A stretch of 64,000 nucleotides of DNA from Eledone cirrhosa (lineage: Eukaryota): positions 74,958,001-75,022,000 of the forward strand of contig OZ024741.1 in the NCBI GenBank assembly GCA_964016885.1, given 5' to 3'. Under the pieces are notes generated by a model. That model searched no databases, was not told the DNA's origin, and was given only the letters and a program-made list of their open reading frames with translations. Of this stretch, positions 1-60,921 are shown in pieces. The position numbers and the translations under genes were made by a program. Numbering within the stretch: position 1 is the stretch's first letter; every line of letters starts with the position of its first letter.

Positions 1-107
1 TTTTTGTTTTTTTTACACGCAGAAATGCCCTTTTGTACCGTCCTGTATTGTCCTGTACTGTCCTTAATGTCTACTTTGTGTAAACCCTTGTGGTTAATAA
101 AGAAAGC
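1..107 (+). mobile_element. 3' UTR end of a second copy of the Tx1-clade LINE (continues left of the window)
   Basis: Near-identical to ~8885-8993 (acacgcagaaatgccc...cccttgtggttaataaagaaa) and followed by (ATT)n at 108-149. Confidence 0.92.
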
Positions 108-117
108 ATTATTATTA

Positions 118-147
<30 letters not shown>

Positions 148-149
<2 letters not shown>

Positions 150-1086
150 GTTTTTTGAGTCTCAGTCATTGATGTTAGTTAACTGGAAAGTTTGTTGAAA
201 TGAATATAAAGCCACTACTTGCAGCCTCAGATATTCAGGACGTATCGGAGGGTTCTTGCTGTTCCCAGCAAGCATGCCTTTTGAAGTGTTCCAAAAAGCG
301 GGGCGGGGCCAAATTTCTGGAAACTCCTTGAGATAGTACCTAGTGTGTCTATGACAATCGGCACCACTTTGACCTCATGGCAGTTCCAAATCCTTTTTAC
401 CTCCCACTTTAAGTCCTGGTATCGGTTAATTTTCTCCCTCTCCTTCTCTTGCACTCTCGTGTCGAATGGGCAGGCCACATCCACAATCAGGCACGATCTT
501 TTTTCCTTGTCCAAAACCACCAGGTCAGGTCTATTGTGTTCCAGTTTCTTGTCCGTCTGTATCCTAAAATCCCACAGCACCTTCACATGATCGTTTTCTA
601 TCACCGACTCTGGCTTATGCTCATACCACTTCTCAGAATGTGGTAAATTGTTTACTTTGCATAGGTGCCAGTTGATCACCCTGCCCATCACATCATGTCT
701 CCAGCCTTTATAGTGAGTCTGGGCTAGGTGTTTACACTCAAATACAATGTGAGCCACAGTCTCCTCTCTCTCTCCACAGATCCTGCACAGTGGGCAAGCC
801 TCCTCCTTGTAAATATGGTGTTTCAGCCACTTCGTTTTGAGGGCCTGCTCTTGCGCAGCCATTAGCATTCTTTCTGTAGCCTTTTTAAGGTCTCCTCTTT
901 TCAACCAGTTCCATGTATGTGGATCTCTGAATTCCGTTTTCTCAAAGAATGTACTATGAAAGAATTTTTCATGAAGGCTGCTCTTTCTCCTTGTTGTTAT
1001 TTCCTCCTTGGACATCCCCTGGTCTAGTGTCCTCTCCTTCAGTACAATTCTGAGCATTGGCTCCTTACTATCAGTCACGTATTTGT
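148..1086 (-). mobile_element. 5'-truncated R4/Dong-like non-LTR retrotransposon, copy 1 (CCHC finger + restriction-like endonuclease)
   Basis: ORF 227..1078: CRICGEREETVAHIVFEC, RHD, NRPD..IVDVACP..EKINRY (PD-(D/E)xK RLE). The 3' end runs into (TAA)n on its sense strand, as known for Dong/Rex6-type elements. Confidence 0.88.
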
Positions 1087-1088
1087 AT

Positions 1089-1181
1089 TATTAACTTTGC
1101 CTTTCATCCTTACGGGGTCGATAAAATAAAGTACCAGTAATGCACTGGATAATTGCTGGCCTTGTGCCTAACGAAGAAACA
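1089..1181 (+). mobile_element. 5'-truncated SINE (family A, Meta-domain-like core) with (ATT)n tail at 1182-1213
   Basis: ttaactttgcctttcatccttacggggtcgataaaataaagtaccag...ggccttgtg...agaaacaatt matches full copies at 13834, 40242 and 60361. Confidence 0.88.
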
Positions 1182-1212
<31 letters not shown>

Positions 1213-1214
<2 letters not shown>

Positions 1215-2949
1215 GTTGTTCTTTGAGTCTCAGTCATTGATGTTAGTTAACTGGAAAGTTTGTTGAAAAGAATATCACGCCACTACCTGCAGCCTCAGAT
1301 ATTCAGGATGTATCGGAGGGTTCTTGCTGTTCCTAGCAAGCATGCTTTTGAAGCGTTCCAAAAAGGGTGGCAGGGCCAATTTTCTTTAACCATCCCTGGA
1401 AACCTTTTGAGATAGTACCTAGTGCGCCTATGACAATCGGGACCACTTTGACTTCATGGCAGTTCCAAATCCTTTTTACCTCCCACTTTAAGTCCTGGTA
1501 TCGGTTAATTTTCTCCCTCTCCTTCTCTTGCACTCTCGTGTCGAATGGGCAGGCCACATCCACAATCAGGCACGATCTTTTTTCCTTGTCCAAAACGACC
1601 AGGTCAGGTCTATTGTGTTCCAGTTTCTTGTCCGTCTGTATCCTAAAATCCCACAGCACCTTCACATGATCGTTTTCTATCACCGACTCTGGCTTATGCT
1701 CATACCACTTCTCAGAATGTGATAAATTTTTTACTTTGCATAGGTGCCAGTGGATCACCCTGCCCATCACATCATGTCTCCAGCCCTTATAGTGAGTCTG
1801 GGCTAGGTGTTTACACTCGGATACAATGTGAGCCACAGTCTCCTCTCTCTCTCCACAGATCCTGCACAGTGGGCTAGCCTCCTCCTTGTAAATATGGTGT
1901 TTCAACCACTTCGTTTTGAGGGCCTACTCTTGCGCAGCCATTAGCATTCCTTCTGTAGCCTTTTTAAGGTCTCCTCTTTTCAACCAGTTCCATGTCTGCG
2001 GATCTCTGAATTCAGTTTTCTCAAAGAAGGTACTATGAAGGGATTTTTCATGAAGGCTGTTATTTCCTCCTTGGACATCCCCTGGTCTATTGTCCTCTCC
2101 TTCAGTACAATTCTGAGCATTGGCTCCTTACTATCAGTCACGTATTTGTGTAGGTTGTTTTTCTCCATCTGAACACAGTCCTCTGTGCTGATAAGACCTC
2201 TTCCACCTTCAGATCTCCTTAAGTAGAGTCTATCGACATCACTCCTCTTGTGGAACATGCTGTAGATAGTCAATAGCTTCCTAGTCTTCCTATCCATTTC
2301 TTTTTGTTCAGCAACATTCCATCTCAGAATTCCCGCACTGTACCTAATAACAGACACAGCTCGGGAATTTACTGCACTTATGGCATTCATACTGTTCAGA
2401 TGTGACTTTAATACGCTCCTTATTCTCCGAATGTATTCAGATCTTATCAATTCATTCATTTTTTTTAACTTGATGTCATCAGCCTCCAGAACACCCAAAT
2501 ACTTGTATCCTTCTTCAGTGTCAATTTCCTTTATCATCTCACCTGTTGGTACCTGGATTCCGTTTCTTCTGCTCAATTTACCCCTCTTCATCACAAGAAC
2601 TCCACACTTACTAATACCAAATTGCATACATATATCATTGCTGAAAATACGGACAGTGTCAACAAGCTCATCCAACTCCTTCTCACTCTCCCCGAAGAGC
2701 TTAAGATCGTCCATGAAGAGGAGGTGATTGATGGTAAGCTCTCCCTTTCCCAACTTGTATCCTGCTCTCACTTTTCGCAGTATAATGGTCAGGAGCATCA
2801 GGACAAGGACAAACAACAGAGGGGACAGACTATCTCCCTGGAAGATACCTCTCTTGATCGTCACGCCTTCCAAGGATTCTCCAGCTGATGTTAACTCTGT
2901 TTTCCAGGACTTCATACTTTTGCCCAACAACTGTCTGATGCTATCTGCC

Positions 2950-2952
<3 letters not shown>
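1213..2952 (-). mobile_element. 5'-truncated R4/Dong-like non-LTR retrotransposon, copy 2 (RT C-half, CCHC, RLE; frameshifted)
   Basis: ORF 1980..2960: RGIFQGDSLSPLLF, LFMDDLKL, YKYLG. ORF 1333..1905: CCHC and RLE. Highly similar to copy 1, with (ATT)n on both flanks. Confidence 0.9.
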
Positions 2953-2981
<29 letters not shown>

Positions 2982-3196
2982 TGAATGCCATGGTTGACGG
3001 AGGCTCGGCTCTGTAAGGTATAGTAATTTTTAACCGTTAAAACAATTGTAAATTGTTTAAAACTTGAACCAAATTGTTGATAAAGACACCCTCCTCCTCG
3101 TGAGAGGGGTCTTTCTGTCCGTTATTTGGCCCTTCGGGGTTAAATAACCAGTTATTGGGGTTTTGTACCCAATATTCATTTTAAACAAAAAACAAC

Positions 3197-5275
3197 ATGG
3201 CTACGAAATAGAAATTTCATACGTCACTCCCACTCATTCCGTCTTCTTCTTCCTCAATCATCACTACAGCAGAGAGAAGATTGTCTCTCTCCCTCCCTTC
3301 TTTAAATGTGTCTCTCTCCCTCCCTTCTCTTTCGCAAGTGACGAAAGAAAAGAAAAGTCTCGTGCAAAGCGTGCAAGGTTTCTCCACGACGACGACGACA
3401 GCGACGAAACAGGTGTGCGGGAAATACGAAAACCCAGTTCATTCGTCTGACGTCAGGAATAATAGCAGTAGCAGCCGTAATAACAACAGCAACAGTGACA
3501 ATGAAAACAACAGTAGCAGCCGCAACAGCATCACCAGCAGCATAAACAACAACAGCATTAGCAGCAGCAACACCAACAACAACCACAGCAACAGCGGCGG
3601 AGGCAGTAGTCGTAGTACCTGCAGCAACAACAAAAGTACCAGCAGCTCTGACGACAACAACAACAGCAGAGAAAAACCAATCTCATTTGCAGGTATTGCG
3701 AAAAACTTGGAAACAATCCTCATAACAAATGAGGAATTAGAGGAAGCGAAGAAGATGGTGACAAAGAACGGACACCGAGCAATCTGCAAGGCAGCGAAAA
3801 ATTTTTTCGAAACCCAAGAGCACTGTACGGTCACGTACCGTACAGTAAGTACAAAATCCCGTAGGGTGGAAAGAGCCACAGAGGCCCAAATACCAAAAGC
3901 CTTGGGGTCTGTGTGGCAGCGGAAAACGCACATCACCCGAGGCAAAAAATATGCCACCGTAGACGTACTTTTTGCCACACCCCAGGAGGCAAAGGCCCAA
4001 TCAGTAGTGACCCTAAGGAGCGAGGAAATGGTGTTGGTGCCCTCCTACTGTGGGCAAAAAATTGTGAGGGTCAAACTGACCCACGTCCCCCCCGGAATGA
4101 CCCCTTCTTGGCTGGCCGCGTCTGTCCTCGTCGGAATCGAGGACAAAACAACTGTACTGCAAGTACAGAAAAAAGTAAGAGAAGATTGGGTCGGCTCCTC
4201 CATTGAGATGCTAATCCAAACCAACCAGGAGTGCATCGAAGCTATCCCGGATGTGATAGACTTCGATAACGGCACTCAACTGCCCATAAGTGTTGAGGGC
4301 AAACGCCCGAAATGCTTTCGCTGTGAATCGAAGACTCACCTCAGGGCCTTCTGCAACGAGAAGACCCTGAGAAAGGAGAAAACCCCCCTCCTTCCGAATC
4401 CGGCTCCACGGCTACCAGCAACAGGACAAGCGGCAACCAGGAACGATAGGCCCGTGGCACCCATACCCACTCCACGGAAATCAAAAACAGCAGCAGCAGT
4501 GGAAATACTAACAACAACAACAGCAATACCAAATGCAGCTGCAACAGAGACTCCAGTGCAAACATCACCAACAACAAGTGAAAGAGTGGAGCTGGTACCC
4601 CTCCCCGACCTCACAGAATCAGACATGGAGTGTGAGGTGGGAGAGGGATGGCAAAAGGTCGTAAGAAGGCACAAACGCAGAAACAGCGCATCGTCGCCTT
4701 TGAAAAGGGAGGAAAGAAATGAGAAAAGGGTAAAGTCTACTGCAAAGAGACCCACAGCAGCAACAACACCAACACCATCACCACCCACACTAGCACCACC
4801 ATCACCACCGCCAACAACACCTTTAACACCACCACCACAAGCACCAACATCGCAAACACAACAACAAAACACACACACCCAGCAACAACGACAAGAAAAT
4901 AGTAGAACCACACCCCACCCCCAGAAAAACAAATGCACGGCAATAAATACACACAACAAGAAACTAATGACTTACATAATTGAACACACAGACATTTCAC
5001 AACAGGACTACATAATACCAGCACCAATCAAAACGCCAACTAACATAAGACTGCTAAAAATAGCACAGAAACAATACACAAACACTAAAACGAAATTCCC
5101 CAACGCAGTTGGTGATTTCAGGGACCTAGGAGGAACCATCAATCGAAGAGTATACTCAGACATTCTCTTAGAAGAGCCGACGACCAGCCGAAGGGACGAT
5201 TCAACGGTCCCTTCACCAGACGATCAAGTGAAAAGGGATGTAAAAACCATCCCTCCTCTACCAAAAGTACGGTAA
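3197..5275 (+). pseudogene. Tx1 ORF1 (gag-like nucleic-acid-binding protein) with one in-frame stop at codon 5
   Basis: ATG at 3197 (aacaacATGG) is in frame with track ORF 3281..5275; TAG at 3209-3211. CX2CX4HX4C knuckle CFRCESKTHLRAFC; N/S-rich N-terminal part; P/T/Q-rich C-terminal part. Confidence 0.8.
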
Positions 5276-5310
5276 GTGGTCTTTCCCATCTTTTCCACTC
5301 TATTTTAAAC

Positions 5311-8300
5311 ATGACCTCACTCAGAATAGGCAGTATAAATGCGCGTGGCTTGGGGTCGTCATGGAAGCAGGGTCACCTGCTCAACGACCTCAGGTCACTA
5401 AACATAGATGTAGTGGCCATCAGCGAGACCAGAATCTCCGAAGCACGGGCCTTCGCACCGATCTTCGGCGGCTACGATGTGTACGCATCTCCCAGCCGTC
5501 CTGGATCGGGTGGAGGAGTTGCTGTGCTTTTTCGGAGAGGTTTGGATCTCGCCATACGGGCCATCTTCCTGGACCCAGAGGGTAAGCTGGTGGTGCTGGA
5601 CGTGACCAGCGGAGACGGGCAAGCTTTCAGGCTAGTGGCCGTCTATGCCCCGACAGGAGCAGGGCGGCCTGATTTCTTCCGGCGTCTGGAGACCTTTCTT
5701 GGAACGTCGCGCTCTTTAGTGTTAGTGGGCGACTGGAACGGGATCTTAGATGCACGCTGGGACTGTGTGGGATTAGCGGATAGGGGTGGAGGGTGCAAGA
5801 GCCTCACCAACCTGCTCAGGCGTTTTGAACTGTCTGACAGGTACCGATTGGATTTCCCGAATGTGCCAATGTGGACTTGGACAAACCGCATAGGGTCATC
5901 CAGATCATATCTAGATAGAGTATTTTGTAGGGAAATAGATAGGTCTAGCATAGGCTGTCCACAATTCAAGATAGTCAGCTACACGGACCACAAATTCGTG
6001 ACCTGTGTGCTTGACTTAGATAGGCTTCATAGACGAGGACCCGGCTACTGGAAGCTAAACGCGTCCTTACCAGCGCGCAAGGCCTACAGAGACCGGATTA
6101 GCGAACTAGTTAAGCGGGCGTTGACGGGGGCCATCGTCAACAACAAGTGGTGGTTTGCTCTGAAAAGAGCGATTAGAATAGAATCGATTAGGTTTAGTAA
6201 GGCTTTAGCAATAGAGAAAAATAGAGCAGAGGGAGAACTAGTTAGAAAATTAGACGAGGCGCTTAGCAAAGGCATTGCGACCGACGTGCTTGCGGCGAAA
6301 TTGGCCCTTGACCAATTCTTCAATGCAAAGCACGAAGGCTGCGTTGTCAGAGCTAGGGTGCGTGCTCTCAGACACGAGGGGACGAAAGCCGTTCAATGGG
6401 CCCGAGTGGCGGAGGCGCGTCGTGGCAACAAAGCCACGATCCGGTCTTTGGTGGACCACGACGGGCGCATGCTACTCGATCCCGGGCAAATGTGTGAAGC
6501 TTTTCAGCGACACTTCGCTCAGCTGTTCGGGGGCAGCGGGGGGCCGGGTAGAGGGATGGACTTTAGTGTCTACCTCGACGGACTGCCGCGGCTCTCGGCC
6601 ACTGAGGCGAAGTGTTGCGAAAAGCCGATAACAGCCGCTGAAGTACGGGAGGCAATGACTGGCTGCACAAGGGGTAAATCGCCTGGTTTGGATGGTCTGC
6701 CCTATGAACTTTACGTACAGATGCCAGACTTGTTCGGAGGCCTCTTGGCGGACGTCTACTGCAAATTGGCAACAGAACGGGAGAATTCCCAGTTCTGTGA
6801 GCCGAGGAGCGGTGGCACTGCTGAGAAAGGATCCGAACAAGGGGGATAACATAGACAATTTCCGGCCCATAACTCTGCTAAACACAGAGTTTAAGATTTT
6901 GGCCAAAGTGCTAGCAAAGAGGTTGGCGCTTGTCGTTGGTGGTCTGGTGGGAGAGGCGCAGACATGCGCCATTCCCGACAGATCCATCCACGACAACCTC
7001 CACCTCATGCGATACATCGTAGAGAGGGTAGCTAGGGAACCTGGCACGGGTGGGTCCTTGATCAATTTAGATCAGTCGAAAGCTTTCGATAGGGTCGACC
7101 ATCGTTACCTAGCGGCAGTCCTGAGGGCGGCTGGCTTTGGGCCCGTCTTCAGAGGCTGGATCGCTGCCATGCACAGCGACATCTGCTCTGTGGTGAGAGT
7201 GAACGGTCACCTGTCGGAACCGTTCAACATCATGCGCTCGGTCCGCCAAGGATGTCCCCTCTTGTCCCTCTTGTACGTATTGACTCTCGAGCCATTACTG
7301 CACAAACTGGAGACGTTGAGGGGAGTCCCGCGCGAACTAGGATGCGGAAGATCCGTGTCAGCATATGCGGACGATGTCACCGTAGTGGTGTCGAACGCCA
7401 AACACATCGAGGCGATCGGCACTACACTAAGAGAATACGAAGCGGTGACAGGAGCAATGATCAACCAGGAAAAGTCAGTGGGCCTGCAGCTCGGCACCTG
7501 GAGAGGCAGGTCCATGCCGTCCAACAGCGTCGTCGGGCGCTGGACGGACGGACCGGTTAAATTGCTAGGGGTCTGGTTCGGTCCGGACCTCCAGACGGAC
7601 AAAAACTGGGACGAGGTGACGAGCAGGGTGGCTTCTCTCACCCAGAAATGGGCGGAGAGGAAGCTATCCCTGAAAGGTCGAGCGGAGGTGGCTAACGCGT
7701 ACATCGCGTCTGTCATCTGCTACCGCCTAACCGTCGTACCTTGTCCTAAGCCTCGCCTGACTGCGCTGGAGCGTTTGCTCTTTCGCTTTTTGTGGAAGGG
7801 ACGTGCTCCGATGGTCAGGCGGTCCATCTGTTGTCAACACCCGCTACGTGGAGGGCTGGGCATGCCGTGGCTGATGATGCGCAGGCACGCGCTCAGGCTA
7901 CGACATCTCCACCTCTTCCTCGACGGTGATCAGGTGTGGTCGCCGTTTGCTAGACGCGTTTTTCCCCAGCTCGTTTCCTTGACGGAGCTGCAGTCCTGGG
8001 TCAAGCGAAGACCGAGAGGGAGCGCCTGGAGACTGGAATGTCTTCAGGCGCTCACAGCCCTCGACCAATCGGGCAATGTGATCGGTGGAAACTCCACCTC
8101 GGCGTTCTATAGAGGATTAGTGGAGGGGAAGAGCGACGACGTACTTGGGGAAACTCTAGGCGTCGACGAAAATCAACTAGCCAATCTCTTCGGAAGAACT
8201 TTCGGGCCAGGGCCTATGGGCAACTTCCAGAAATCTCTGGCCTGGCAGTGCTACCGAGGAGCCTTGCCAGTTCGGGATAAACTCTACAGGCATGGAGGTG

Positions 8301-8731
8301 CCGTCAGCCGGGCATGTCCGAGATGCGCGCAGGGCGACGAAACCGTCCTGCACGCATTCGTCCAGTGTCCGAAAATTGCTGACTTGTGGGTTTATGTCGA
8401 ACACCTGCTGTCGCGTTTAGGACGGATCCAGCTATCATCTGAGTCTATCGTGAGGATTGCCCCGCCCTCCTCCTTTAGCCGGGAAGGGCAGGCAGTTTTT
8501 ATCTGTCTGGTGGCCATGGCGAAAGAGATAGTATGGTGGACACGTTTGAAAGGGCTGAAGACGAGCACTTACCTCTTCGGTGATGCTCTGATTGACTTTT
8601 TCAAATTTCATTTGAAAAGGAAAATCAGAGTAGAGAAGGAAGTGCTCTCTTCCCAGCATTTTGTTGAAAGATGGGTGAGAGAAGCAAGAATGGCCCGAGT
8701 GAATGGGCCGACTCTGAGTATATATCTGTAA
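5311..8731 (+). pseudogene. Tx1 ORF2 (APE endonuclease, reverse transcriptase, CCHC) with one frameshift near 6765
   Basis: APE: SINARG, ISETR, GGGVA, VYAP, GDWN, YLD, TDH. RT: PGLDGLP, FRPITLLN, DQSKAFDRV, RQGCPL, YADD. C-terminal CPRC..ETVLHAFVQC. Split between track ORFs 5311..6849 and 6692..8731. Confidence 0.93.
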
Positions 8732-8991
8732 ATTAAAGGTGGAAAACTGGGAGAGGGCACTTGCCTTGGTGGTCAGGGTCATTGTGGCTTTTTACTGGGC
8801 TTTCTCCACAAATGTCCCTCCGAAGTCTCCCCCCTATTGGGGAATTTTTCATTGTTATTTTCATTGTTATTTTTGTTACATCCTCTGTTTTTGTTTTTTT
8901 ACACGCAGAAATGCCCATTTGTACCGTCCTGCATTGTCCTGCACTGTCCTTAATGTCTACTTTATGTAAACCCTTGTGGTTAATAAAGAAA

Positions 8992-9045
<54 letters not shown>

Positions 9046-9046
<1 letters not shown>

Positions 9047-10205
9047 TGGATGTAGGGTTAAGGCGCATTCTATTGTTTGTATCACAGGAGAGTTTAATTT
9101 TAGAGAGCTTACTGTGGTTGCTGAGTGATATGTGGTCCGCTAAGTTTGGGGTTGTGGAGTAAGAGATTTTAATATTATTTTTGTTAATGATCTTATGGTA
9201 CTTATGGTTGGTTGGGAAGTTTTTCTCCAAGATGCCGAAGAAGATTTTAGGTATATTAGAGGTAACGGTCTTGGAGTACGGAGGAAGATACCATGAAATA
9301 TTATGGCAGTGTCTTCTACGTGGTGCTCTGAAGTTGGCGCGGTCATTAATGCCATAATGGGTGTTATTCCTGCTGCTACCAAGACCGGGCCATTTGAACC
9401 CTCCGTCCCTATTTGCCTTATTCGTTCCTATACCGTTGAAAAAGTTAGCAGGCGTGATTCCAGACTTATTAGTAAGTGTAGGTAGCAGCCCATCCCCATT
9501 ATTGCGTCTATAAACAGGGAATATATCTAGGTTGGTTGCTTCGATTTTATTTGTGGAGTATGGTTGCTTATTATAACTGGACCTAGCTATTTTATTACTA
9601 TGGTGATATTTCTTAGAGCTATTCATGTTATCCAATCTATTTTTATTATTCCTATCGTTAGTAATGTTACTGTGTCGGGCGATTATGTTATTACGATTGT
9701 GTGAGATATTAATAAATTTAATATCCTGGATGTAAGAGATCTTATTATTATAGACTGACGCTATCAGTGCACTTTTATAGTACTCTGCAGTGCTGTTAAA
9801 TATGTCCCCATTGGCTGAAAGCCTTGAGATTCTATGAGAGACGCTCTTCACTATAGAGTTGAGGATGGAAGGAGGGTGGTTAGATGATTTATTAATGTAA
9901 GAAAGCACTTCACCAGGCTTATGGTATGGTCGGTATAGGCCTATGTCTAGTTCTAATGTTACATCTGGGAAGTTAACTATCTTATGGTTAGGGTCAATGG
10001 TTACCGAAAGGCCGTTTGTTTTAAAGAACTTGTGTATATGTTTACTAAGATTTTCAATTCTACGGGGATTGTTATTTTTTACAGTAAATAGAGCGCCATC
10101 TCTATATAAATCTCCCTGGAGTGCCGGGATTTCTTCTCTAAGTCTGTTCAGAGGTAGATGCCAACAAGGTCAGTTACCTGGGCAGAGTCACTCGACCCCA
10201 TCGTG
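9046..10205 (-). mobile_element. Penelope-like element fragment (RT C-half, thumb, Asn-rich linker)
   Basis: Minus-strand translation gives MGSSDSAQVTDLVGIYL, LYRDG (decayed YRDD), VNFPDVTL, YHKP, SNHPPSI, ISWYLPPYS, IKISYSTTPNL, typical of Penelope-type RT. Cut at the (ATT)n at 9045. Confidence 0.85.
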
Positions 10206-46051: not shown

Positions 46052-47627
46052 TTTACGCATCGAGAAAGAGAAAAAAAGGGGGGATAGGTGATACATATAG
46101 TTATTTGCCAAGTAGCGTATGCCAAAGGTGCTCGATACTAGTGCCGGCAGTATTAAATATTCGAAGTGTTAATATTTAGTGGGCTAGAGAGTTAGCAGAG
46201 CGTAAGCACGTGGGAAAGTAAAAAATCGGAGAATAGACCGTTAAAAAATGTTTATTTAAAATATCACCTACGTACGTTTCGCCCAGTTGGGCTTCTCAAG
46301 GGCATAAATAATCACAAGTGTTCCTTATATTGCTCGGAAAGAGTTTTGGGGGTTAAATCCACATCAAGGTTCATTGCTCGCAAAAATATCTTGTTTTGAT
46401 TTTGCAGCAGGTCAAGGGAGGTAACTCTGGCCGGTGTTAGGGCAGTCTGTCCCGGACAAATTTTTTTTTTTTTTTTTTTTGCCGCATCCGTTTGTCTGAG
46501 GCTGGGTCTGGTATGCAAGGATTATTTTCTGGGTGTTATTTTGCAGCGCCTGCCCGCCGGGGTGTTAAGACTTGTTGCAGGGAGATCCAGTGTACTATTT
46601 CACTCTTCATCCTTAACCCATCTGAAGAAGGATATTTTTAAGCGATGTGTACAACTTATCGCTGTTTCAGCTCTGCTGTTGATGAGCTCGTGGGGTGCAG
46701 TTATGATGTGGTAGAGCTCCATGAGGCAAAGATCGCATTTCCTCTTGAAGTTGTACGGTGCAGCCCTGCCGACAATCTCCCAGTGCGTGGAGAAGCTGAT
46801 GTTTAAATTGCAACTGCCGCGACAGAGGACGCTGCCCCCTTAGAGGATACTGCTTGACTGATAGGGTTATATATAGATGCACTATTACTAGCCACAATAG
46901 CGTTAAACATTATATAGGGGCCACCTCCGGCCCGTTCAAAATTAGGTTTCGAACACATCTCCACTCTTTCACAAATAGAAAACTAAGGCACTCCACTTCG
47001 CTCGCGGACTACATCACATCACTAAAGGACTTAAACATCAGCTTCTCCACGCACTGGGAGATTGTCGGCAGGGCTGCACCGTACAACTTCAAGAGGAAAT
47101 GCGATCTTTGCCTCATGGAGCTCTACCACATCATAACTGCACCCCACGAGCTCATCAACAGCAGAGCTGAAACAGCGATAAGTTGTACACATCGCTTAAA
47201 AATATCCTTCTTCAGATGGGTTAAGGATGAAGAGTGAAATAGTACACTGGATCTCCCTGCAACAAGTCTTAACACCCCGGCGGGCAGGCGCTGCAAAATA
47301 ACACCCAGAAAATAATCCTTGCATACCAGACCCAGCCTCAGACAAACGGATGCGGCAAAAAAAAAAAAAAAAAAAATTTGTCCGGGACAGACTGCCCTAA
47401 CACCGGCCAGAGTTACCTCCCTTGACCTGCTGCAAAATCAAAACAAGATATTTTTGCGAGCAATGAACCTTGATGTGGATTTAACCCCCAAAACTCTTTC
47501 CGAGCAATATAAGGAACACTTGTGATTATTTATGCCCTTGAGAAGCCCAACTGGGCGAAACGTACGTAGGTGATATTTTAAATAAACATGTTTTAACGGT
47601 CTATTCTCCGATTTTTTACTTTCCCAC

Positions 47628-47629
<2 letters not shown>
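46048..47629. mobile_element. PLE insertion with 599-bp inverted duplication (arms 46208-46806 and 47031-47629)
   Basis: GIY-YIG on plus ~46810-47237 (CNCR..CPL..VIY..YIG..CDLC); arms almost identical; (TA)n on both flanks. Confidence 0.92.
47531..47575 (+). ncRNA. Type I hammerhead ribozyme motif, U3-A8 variant (mirror copy at 46262-46306, minus strand)
   Basis: TTGAGAA-GCCC(aact)GGGC-GAAAC-gtac-GTA; palindromic stem III; weak stem I. Confidence 0.65.
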
Positions 47630-59525: not shown

Positions 59526-60360
59526 CATATATCACAATCACTTACACGATAGTTTAGCAAGTGGGTTGGTCCTATTGATCAATCAGCATAAAACCAGTGG
59601 AGGATTCATCATTATCCCACAGAGAAACTTGATGGTTTCTGGAAAATTCTAACAGTTTCATGGCTTCATTAAGAAAATATTGTAGCTTCAGTCTTTAAAG
59701 TCCCTAGTAGGGTGGGGTGGGATAGAGAAGAGGGATTAACAAAATGTCTTCCTTAATATACCTTGCTCACCTGACTCCCACCTTATCATGACATGTACAT
59801 ATGTATTCATGCTATTATCTACTTAGTCATAATTACACCTTGAAATACCCACGCATTTATGTGTACCTGTATGTGTGTGTGTGTATGCATATGTATGTGT
59901 GTGTCTGTATATGTGCAACTCTGTGTCTGTCAGTCAGTGTCTGTGTATATGATGGTGTGAATATGTTTGTGTGCCTATGTGTAGCTTTCAGTATATTTAT
60001 GAGTGATGACGAGGAGTGAGAAGCAGACTTAGACAAATGCAGAAGTACAAATACCACCACCACAGCTACTACTAATATTACTTACTTGATGCTCCACTAC
60101 CACTACCACTACTACTGCTATTACTATTTACCTGACGCCCCCACCATCACCACCACCACCAGGTAATGCCAAACTGACATACATCACATCATGTATTTCA
60201 AAAGATATCATGCAGCTGGTGTGTCTCATGGCAGTAAACAACTGAGTCATCTGAAAACATAATAGTAATAATAGTGATAATAAGAATTATGATAATAATA
60301 ATAATAACGATAATAACAATTATGATGATAATAATAATAATTGTTGATAATAATAATAAT

Positions 60361-60548
60361 TGTTTCTACTTTTGGCACAAGGCCAGCAATTTCCCAGAGC
60401 ATTACTGGTACTTTATTTTATCGACCCCGTAAAGATGAAAGGCAAAGTTAACCTCGGCGGGAATTGAACTCATAATGGCAAGGGCCGTAACTCTATACGT
60501 CAAAGCATGGCATCCGACCCTCTACCGATACTGCCAATCCACCGCCCT
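60361..60548 (-). mobile_element. Full-length family A SINE inside an (AAT)n tract
   Basis: tgataataataataat on both flanks. Confidence 0.9.
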
Positions 60549-60921
60549 TGATAATAATAATAATAATGATTAATCATGTTTCTGTGCTGGTTTCTGTGTA
60601 AGAGCATGCATGATAACAGCTATGGGCTGATGCCTGACTCCAGGATGTAATGTAATTGCAAAGCCAAGGTAAACAATTGTAAATACTAGAAAAGTAGCAA
60701 ATAATGATTTCTTACTGAGGTGCAAGGCCATATAATTTGGGATCTTGGTAGAGCTAGTTCTGTATGGTGTGGGGATTCAAGGATTTGGGGGAAGTGATGG
60801 TGAGAAAATTGCTAATTATATAAATGCCAGAACTTGTAAAAGTGTGTGTGGAAGCCAATATATTGGTTCTGGGTTTCAAAGAAATGAGGATAAGCCTATA
60901 AATACCTAATGGGTTACTTAT

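Follow-up and report, generated by a model that had tools for sequence, protein, structure and literature searches.

Tx1, SINE and Dong retrotransposons nested in one AAT/ATT repeat of Eledone cirrhosa: a nest probably grown by repeated target-primed insertion

We suggest that the first 9,045 nt of a 64,000-nt stretch of the 3.0-Gb Eledone cirrhosa genome (contig OZ024741.1, positions 74,958,001 to 75,022,000; the whole stretch is called the window hereafter) belong to a nest of retrotransposons set in a single AAT/ATT repeat, in which Tx1-type long interspersed elements (LINEs) and a tRNA-type short interspersed element (SINE) stand in ATT polarity and Dong/R4-type LINEs in the opposite one. 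The nest was probably grown by repeated target-primed insertions, each duplicating the landing site. This is argued from the anatomy and polarity of the array, a genome-wide bias of flanks, target duplications, the age spread of the eight elements and a hairpin common to the SINE and Tx1, all of them direct observations. Comparison loci from the same assembly carry L-numbers; the window lies on contig C2, most comparison loci cited here lie on contig C1, and negative positions lie left of the window and were read from the neighbouring 30 kb (locus L001).

The array comprises eight elements across 11 kb and begins at about -2037 (L001:7963), 2 kb before the window. Its left part runs from a tract through a Dong fragment of 203 bp on the minus strand, another tract, a Dong fragment of 744 bp (minus), a SINE (plus) and (ATT)5 to a Tx1 of 946 bp (plus), so that the extension adds two Dong fragments, a second SINE and the remainder of the truncated Tx1 with which the window opens. 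Within 1-9045, sequence, repeat finding and Pfam domains bore out the element order and polarity given by the first-pass annotation. The 3' end of the 5'-truncated Tx1 (1-105, plus, starting at -841 in L001, 91% identical to the full copy) meets, tail to tail across an (ATT)n tract at 108-152, a 5'-truncated Dong on the minus strand (151-1086, 94% identical to the natural full-length copy L267), whose open reading frame (ORF) holds the CCHC motif (CxxC..H..C) and the restriction-like endonuclease (RLE) motif (RPD..D..K..Y). This Dong joins the 3' half of a SINE (1091-1181, plus, delimited by sequence comparison) head to head at ATTATT (1087-1092), which is not a tract, two of its six nucleotides matching the SINE itself. 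A tract at 1182-1220 then separates the SINE 3' end from that of another 5'-truncated Dong (1219-2950, minus, 95.5% identical to L267) with part of the reverse transcriptase (RT; RVT_1, E 1.8e-10), CCHC and RLE regions. A third tract (2950-2982) lies between its truncation point and the 5' end of a full-length young Tx1 of 6011 bp (2983-8993, plus), whose divergence from the closest among 45 other copies sampled is 0.4%; the (ATT)17 at 8994-9045 adjoins the Tx1 3' end and forms the right array border. Tandem Repeats Finder and sequence together placed the tracts, all read on the plus strand, at 108-149, 1182-1214, 2953-2982 and 8994-9045.

Median identity to sampled relatives was, from left to right, 94.0, 90.2, 88.3, 92.9, 95.0, 93.3, 95.8 and 99.0%, and the four Dong pieces share 86-96% identity with one another and have differing truncation points. 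The spread of identities and the differing truncation points fit insertions spread over time, the oldest apparently in the left middle, rather than one duplication.

The claim that every junction is ATT repeat failed at the head-to-head joints: the Dong/SINE joint in the window has six nucleotides, and the upstream one (L001:8972) is without any ATT. In all, there are 16 joints at which a 5'-truncated Dong stands head to head with a Tx1 or SINE that is itself 5'-truncated; most of them have no tract and overlap little (tract-less examples are L001:8972, L131/L160, L163, L148, L121 and L289). Our first guess is that such joints would result from deletions at the 5' junction like those of R2 (PMC3774820; here and below, statements from the literature refer to the available parts of the sources), and later deletions or two simultaneous priming events could also produce them.

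Both outer flanks of the array appear to be parts of one interrupted Penelope-like ORF, split into a right part (9046-10169, minus strand), without Pfam match, and a left part (L001:7654-7962) that is GIY-YIG-like by a weak match (E 0.029, below the Pfam cut-off); in Penelope-like elements a GIY-YIG domain stands C-terminal to the RT. Because 19 of 29 related loci have the two parts linked in order, for the most part by an Asn/Ser-rich segment of ~300 bp, the array appears to sit inside the Asn-rich linker of a Penelope-like element, where Asn codons would supply AAT runs. Native AAT runs are present at the array's insertion site in the Penelope relatives, and five of the seven closest ones, read by eye, have ends of SINE or Tx1 elements in the same linker. 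The window's copy has lost the greater part of this linker.

Whether ATT is a target of Tx1 or only its tail was addressed at the 5' junctions. In the 3'-anchored sample (87 distinct copies from contig C1, of which 13 with unresolved 5' ends were left out), (ATT)≥3 was found in 44 of the 74 resolved 5' flanks, comprising 30/31 full-length and 14/43 truncated copies. By comparison, (ATT)≥3 ends within 6 nt of only 0.01% and 0.14% of 73,660 background positions on the respective strands, and even the truncated copies are at least 200-fold above this background. Mostly non-ATT 5' flanks, which the first-pass annotation had named as the sign of a mere tail, were thus not what the tabulation gave, though truncated copies show the tract less often. 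By exact matching genome-wide, 1564 of 1635 Tx1A 5' ends come directly after ATTATTATT, i.e. (ATT)3, and all 35 starts of a second type, TxB, are preceded by ATT. Single dispersed Tx1 copies have the same ATT flanks as arrayed ones, and at all loci sampled, which were chosen around these elements, Tx1 3' ends read into ATT in 164 cases, AAT in 4 and neither in 23. Because 30/31 full-length and 14/43 truncated flanks stand against a background of at most 0.14%, we conclude that ATT is, on these flank counts, a real Tx1 preference, strong for full-length and partial for truncated copies. The flanks are far beyond the 20% same-repeat criterion for target specificity in the available text of PMC4494074. 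Separately, some Tx1 copies were seen at (ACT)n or (TTC)n repeats (L020, L027, L029, L109, L129), where specificity may be loose or compound repeats may be used, and in L103 a truncated Tx1 begins at CCCTAA units that resemble telomere repeats.

Dong reads the same repeat from the other side. At the loci sampled its 3' ends adjoin AAT in 101 of 109 cases, ATT in none and neither in 8 (again at loci chosen around these elements), and 29 of 30 sampled 3' ends scored by script read into (AAT)≥3. The 5' flanks of truncated copies are AAT in 12/23 by a strict rule and 16/23 by eye; those of full-length copies are AAT in 7/7 by eye and in 1/7 by script, since the reference misses the first bases. 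Tail-to-tail contact with Dong was found for 29 of the 87 sampled Tx1 3' ends. The proposal that a Tx1 with an apurinic/apyrimidinic-type endonuclease (APE) and an RLE-type Dong occupy one repeat in opposite polarity thus holds genome-wide, on both 5' and 3' flank counts.

The SINE behaves differently from a microsatellite-bound element. Its head 24-mer has 60,604 genome-wide matches; the full natural copy is 184 nt long with A- and B-box-like motifs at 12 and 77, and it gave no Rfam tRNA match. Thirty SINE-anchored loci were sampled, of which 13 with tandem-head arrays were left out, giving 17 loci with 19 copies. Target duplications of 11-27 bp were present in 16 of these 19 copies and started at ATTA, within one base, in 14 of the 16, while upstream (ATT)≥3 was found in only two of the 19. 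The idea of the SINE as a third microsatellite-targeting family was rejected on this count; judged by its junctions, the SINE is a user of short ATTAT sites, and it likely rides on Tx1. Two further SINE observations were made. At L181-L193 (C1, 1.67 Mb and 1.767 Mb) a 45-bp SINE head is tandemly arrayed before the SINE body, and many of the matches listed are 45 bp apart; at 60291-60570 of the window a SINE with a 17-bp duplication lies in an imperfect AAT-rich tract, the sole (ATT)≥4 cluster in the window past 10.3 kb.

The last 27 nt of the SINE resemble the Tx1C tail so closely that none of 20,000 background 27-mers scored as high, for all three SINE tails; the shared tail covers these 27 nt only and is strongest with older Tx1 subfamilies. 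Both elements end in a hairpin with a 4-bp stem and a CTTGT loop, found in the window's SINE half at 1157-1160/1166-1169 (loop 1161-1165) and in the full-length Tx1 at 8969-8987 (stem 8969-8972/8978-8981, then AATAAA). Across the alignment 90.9% of cells are paired, three of the four pairs show two-sided change, 0/500 shuffles were as good, and the hairpin scored above all slid controls. Because of this covarying 3' hairpin in common, Tx1 likely mobilises the SINE. Such hairpins typify stringent SINE/LINE pairs, and pairs of this kind are rare in the L1 group (PMC3472496, PMC3747384). The account of Tx1 and Dong could still be right with the SINE moved by another LINE (e.g. RTE, CR1 or L2), its 27-nt tail being convergence or a relic: the common tail is short and matches older Tx1 subfamilies best, the comparison covered the 3' ends of Tx1 and Dong, and the SINE is much less closely tied to tracts than Tx1 is. 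We consider this improbable, however, as polarity and ATTAT start are the same as for Tx1, duplication lengths overlap, the loop is conserved with compensatory changes in the stem, and the SINE tail is not similar to the 3' end of either Dong family (scores -3 to 5).

Target duplications that include non-ATT letters were found at three Tx1 copies (L098, 16 bp; L111, 15 bp; L020, 11 bp). In tandem arrays, copies were seen with the same imperfect spacer, 24-200 nt long, before and after them: one array has GTT(ATT)5 at four of its junctions, (ATT)3CCCTT(ATT)15 and (ATT)3T(ATT)8 each flank a copy on both sides, a 40-nt SINE fragment is repeated around three tandem copies, and a truncated Tx1 piece lies on both sides of one copy (its 5' side seen for the last 90 nt). 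A replicate set added a GCT(ATT)7 echo.

Several observations weigh against a nest grown by targeted insertion. Sampling was for the most part confined to the first 130 Mb of contig C1. The 5' junction is without (ATT)≥3 in 29 of the 43 truncated Tx1 copies, few of which are explained on closer look (TTC 3, ACT 1, short ATTAT 3, Dong fusion 5, internal duplication 2, other 15). A non-trivial echo was seen in only 3 of 24 imperfect Tx1 flanks, four further script matches being trivial. None of the contigs of public sequencing runs spanned the junction or showed an empty site, and no empty-site allele was found. The SINE matches the tail of the youngest subfamily, Tx1A, more weakly (17-393 of 20,000 background scores as high), and the hairpin has only four pairs, scored over 11 motif-filtered and related rows. 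Finally, the phase of full-length junctions is nearly fixed, with 116 of 117 ending in ATT before G, which also fits an ATT leader borne by the RNA, so that a short leader of this kind may exist.

Carried further, the last point leads to an enzyme that needs only a short ATTAT and to long tracts made mostly by the elements themselves, through a slipped AUU tail and an AUU leader, (ATT)n being then more product than target. The fixed phase, the tract at only a third or so of the truncated copies, the short SINE sites and the single ATT in which Tx1 copies at ACT or TTC repeats end (L020, L109, L011) would all suit this. Yet the 5' tracts are anywhere from 2 to 33 units long and have imperfections that are peculiar to each locus and echoed there, and L262 has two units only; truncated copies cannot bring a leader, yet they share the enrichment given above; and Penelope relatives have AAT runs of their own at the same site. 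We regard tracts made chiefly by the elements as unlikely, and the difference from repeated insertion into a pre-existing repeat is one of degree.

Tandem Tx1 arrays (L304-L343, e.g. C1:114785800-114811200, C1:94641500-94654600 and C1:63980900-63994000), in which the spacer is echoed to the left and right of the upstream copy, allowed neighbouring copies to be compared. Pairs were picked from match lists by spacing, 13 in the first set and 9 in the replicate (of 10, L325 being without a full copy), and 7 of these 22 were identical over at least the first 0.8 kb. In the first set, 5 of 13 adjacent pairs had an identical 5' stretch of 829-3812 columns, past which they differed; 0 of 1012 non-neighbour pairs reached 800 identical 5' columns (maximum 654). 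Of 7 pairs compared for private changes, 6 had fewer of them in the upstream copy. In the replicate, one pair was identical throughout (L332/L333), one for 3764 columns, one young copy matched a 4%-diverged neighbour for 557 columns and six pairs looked independent. Because 8 of 162 replicate non-neighbour pairs also have at least 800 identical 5' columns, L334/L335 may be simply two very young copies. Unequal crossing-over was rejected as the source of those 5'-identical pairs in which no Tx1 precedes the upstream copy and the 3' parts are unshared. As 7 of the 22 pairs are identical from the 5' end, the alignments suggest that a new cDNA may be primed in the upstream tract and completed on the resident neighbour's 5' part; tract-initiated gene conversion or assembly polishing may also give rise to 5' identity.

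Alternatively, the arrays could come mainly from DNA-level events (tandem duplication, unequal crossing-over, tract-started gene conversion) or in part be artefacts of the assembly, and the insertion preference would then matter little. One of the 22 pairs is indeed identical over its full length (L332/L333), 4 of the 13 first-set pairs are closer to each other than the 5th percentile of the background (p=0.003), and 5'-polar identity could be conversion. We consider this very improbable, since the window's eight elements are unlike in family, truncation point and age, 14 of the 22 pairs first differ within ~360 columns as unrelated copies do, the shared 3' parts predicted by unequal crossing-over are not seen, and dispersed single copies have the same ATT flanks. 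The claim that arrays grow by themselves because each insertion regenerates its target can be kept in part: insertions do leave target on both sides, but neighbours also seem to serve as local templates, and at least one copy was duplicated over its whole length.

In the insertion model that we favour, the Tx1 APE domain would nick the AAT strand directly in front of ATTAT, and the end set free there would pair with the AUU terminus of the RNA, which would favour long tracts; the Dong RLE would nick the other strand of the repeat. The Tx1 ORF2 protein would recognise the CUUGU-loop hairpin and hence also copy the SINE, which would land at short ATTAT sites and seed new targets, as the Asn-codon linker of the Penelope-like element would likewise. 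Where a new Tx1 arrives just upstream of a resident one, its cDNA may sometimes be finished on the resident 5' part, which would copy the spacer and yield a full-length chimera. Such chimeras, if real, would account for the full-length share (31 of the 74 resolved copies), for the long duplications and for the pairing of one ORF2 with different cassettes of 5' untranslated region (UTR) and ORF1. It is then conceivable, to a little less than even expectation, that self-targeting arrays act as workshops in which truncated cDNA is completed on a resident copy and which, with the SINE and Dong, form a three-party self-feeding niche.

The Tx1 family is, judged by its copies, very young: at the protein level, every one of the 150 APE-domain matches scored is 100% identical, and both ORFs are open in 10 of 40 sampled copies. 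Exact genome-wide matching gave 7988 copies of a 3' 21-mer and 1635 of a 5' 22-mer. In the window copy, ORF1 (3197-5275, plus, with a CCHC knuckle) has a stop codon at 3209-3211, and ORF2 (5311-8731, plus; APE, RT and CCHC; Exo_endo_phos E 8.5e-15, RVT_1 E 6.2e-27) is frameshifted near 6763. Over the window elements Pfam gave APE, RT and zf-RVT for Tx1 and RT and zf-RVT for Dong; in the intact natural Tx1 copy L260, Exo_endo_phos, RVT_1 and zf-RVT are all above the cut-off and the catalytic motifs are present. ORF1 encodes 692 aa with a CX2CX4HX4C knuckle and no Pfam family above the cut-off; a CCHC zinc knuckle in ORF1 is a trait of the Tx1 clade. ORF2 matches the Xenopus TX1 149 kDa protein with E 7.6e-61 and 28% identity over 980 aa in pairwise comparison. 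TxB (L282, minus strand, 215-6090) is 95% like the window Tx1 (2983-8993) in ORF2 and 3' end, with a different 5' UTR and a diverged ORF1 (55% in the core).

For Dong, the 3' 25-mer has 2942 genome-wide matches, and the natural copies L267 and L283 have a single ORF with RT, CCHC and a PD..D..K RLE (from translations, with RVT_1 in Pfam). The best relatives of the protein among solved structures are R2 proteins (E 1e-20), and no homolog named R4 or Dong appeared among the 120 listed. A divergent N-terminal Myb domain and a 5' ribozyme like that of hepatitis delta virus are traits of the R4/Dong clade; neither by eye nor in Pfam was an N-terminal zinc finger found in the ORF, Pfam gave no Myb family, and Rfam gave nothing at E<=1 for one Dong 5' end. 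Another Dong-like family, DongX (L283:3580-7555, with an open frame of 1071 aa), behaves in the same way as the first: it has an AAT tail and is often tail to tail with Tx1.

Each part of this arrangement has precedent; the ATT target and the SINE/Tx1 partnership were not found in the literature searched. Known microsatellite targets in the Tx1 clade are (TC)n for Kibi, (TTC)n for Koshi and (TTCC)n/(TTTC)n for crocodilian families (PMC4494074, PMC3812793). Our Tx1 resembles these in having two ORFs, an APE endonuclease and the microsatellite on both flanks; compared by description, it differs in the ATT target, its thousands of copies, a repeat shared with Dong and a SINE partner with a common tail. 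For Dong, (TAA)n is the target in insects, molluscs and cnidarians (PMC7998251, PMC3812793), and with its single ORF (RT, CCHC, RLE), reading into (AAT)n and AAT 5' junctions, the present Dong adds nothing new in itself, except that at least two families are present here, often tail to tail with Tx1. SART and TRAS of Bombyx likewise form two LINE families that use one simple repeat, (TTAGG)n, in opposite directions (PMC7265360); they are both APE-type R1-clade elements confined to telomeres, whereas here an APE and an RLE element use dispersed microsatellites.

As in SINEU/Tx1-Mar (PMC4494074) and stringent L1-clade pairs (PMC3472496), the SINE is likely mobilised by a Tx1/L1-clade LINE, with a stem-loop of conserved loop and compensatory stems and with sequential tandem insertions around a duplication; unlike in those systems, it has a tRNA-type head, over 60,000 copies and a common tail of 27 nt. 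Only three SINEs with L1-clade tails are counted among 58 pairs in the available part of PMC3472496. In templated or chimeric L1 insertions, cDNA pairs with nearby DNA (22 tumour cases, typically <250 bp; bioRxiv 10.1101/2024.08.27.596794), and R2 5' junctions are homology-guided (PMC3774820). The neighbour chimeras would resemble both in that a cDNA still being extended is resolved on homologous sequence close to the target, whereby a segment is duplicated. If our reading holds, they would differ from templated L1 in scale, with as much as 3.8 kb taken from the 5' part of the neighbour and as many as a third of the sampled tandem pairs affected. Dong-R4 and L1-Tx1 were recently active in Octopus vulgaris according to PMC13282606, the available text of which has no mention of 'target' or 'nested', and the accessible parts of PMC4640811, PMC4758252 and PMC4824008 contain no ATT-type Tx1 and no Tx1 partner for an octopus SINE. 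An ATT-targeting Tx1 was likewise not found in the literature searched, though Repbase entries, supplements or the figure 3 labels of PMC4494074 may have one.

These results would add ATT to the targets of the Tx1 clade and point to two unrelated endonucleases, an APE and an RLE, that occur together in nature and would read one repeat from opposite strands. They also name a likely partner LINE for a SINE of over 60,000 copies, through a kind of shared tail that is rare in the L1/Tx1 group, and the neighbour chimeras bear on how LINE 5' ends get joined. Since the Tx1 family is very young and both its ORFs are open in a quarter of the sampled copies, target choice, SINE recruitment and 5' junction formation are directly testable. 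The findings also have a bearing on how repeats are annotated, and ATT microsatellites used as markers, in this group of animals.

Three features outside the array were noted in passing. A perfect 599-bp inverted repeat with a 224-bp spacer (46208-46806 and 47031-47629 of the window) is either a young foldback element or an assembly feature. To the left of the array, a further decayed RT/RLE-type LINE at L001:1700-3980 (plus strand) gave no blastn match to the Dong reference, and a repeat of ~420 bp stands in tandem at L001:4716-5140 and 5133-5580; its end also adjoins a Tx1 break in L298, and it is possibly a DNA transposon.

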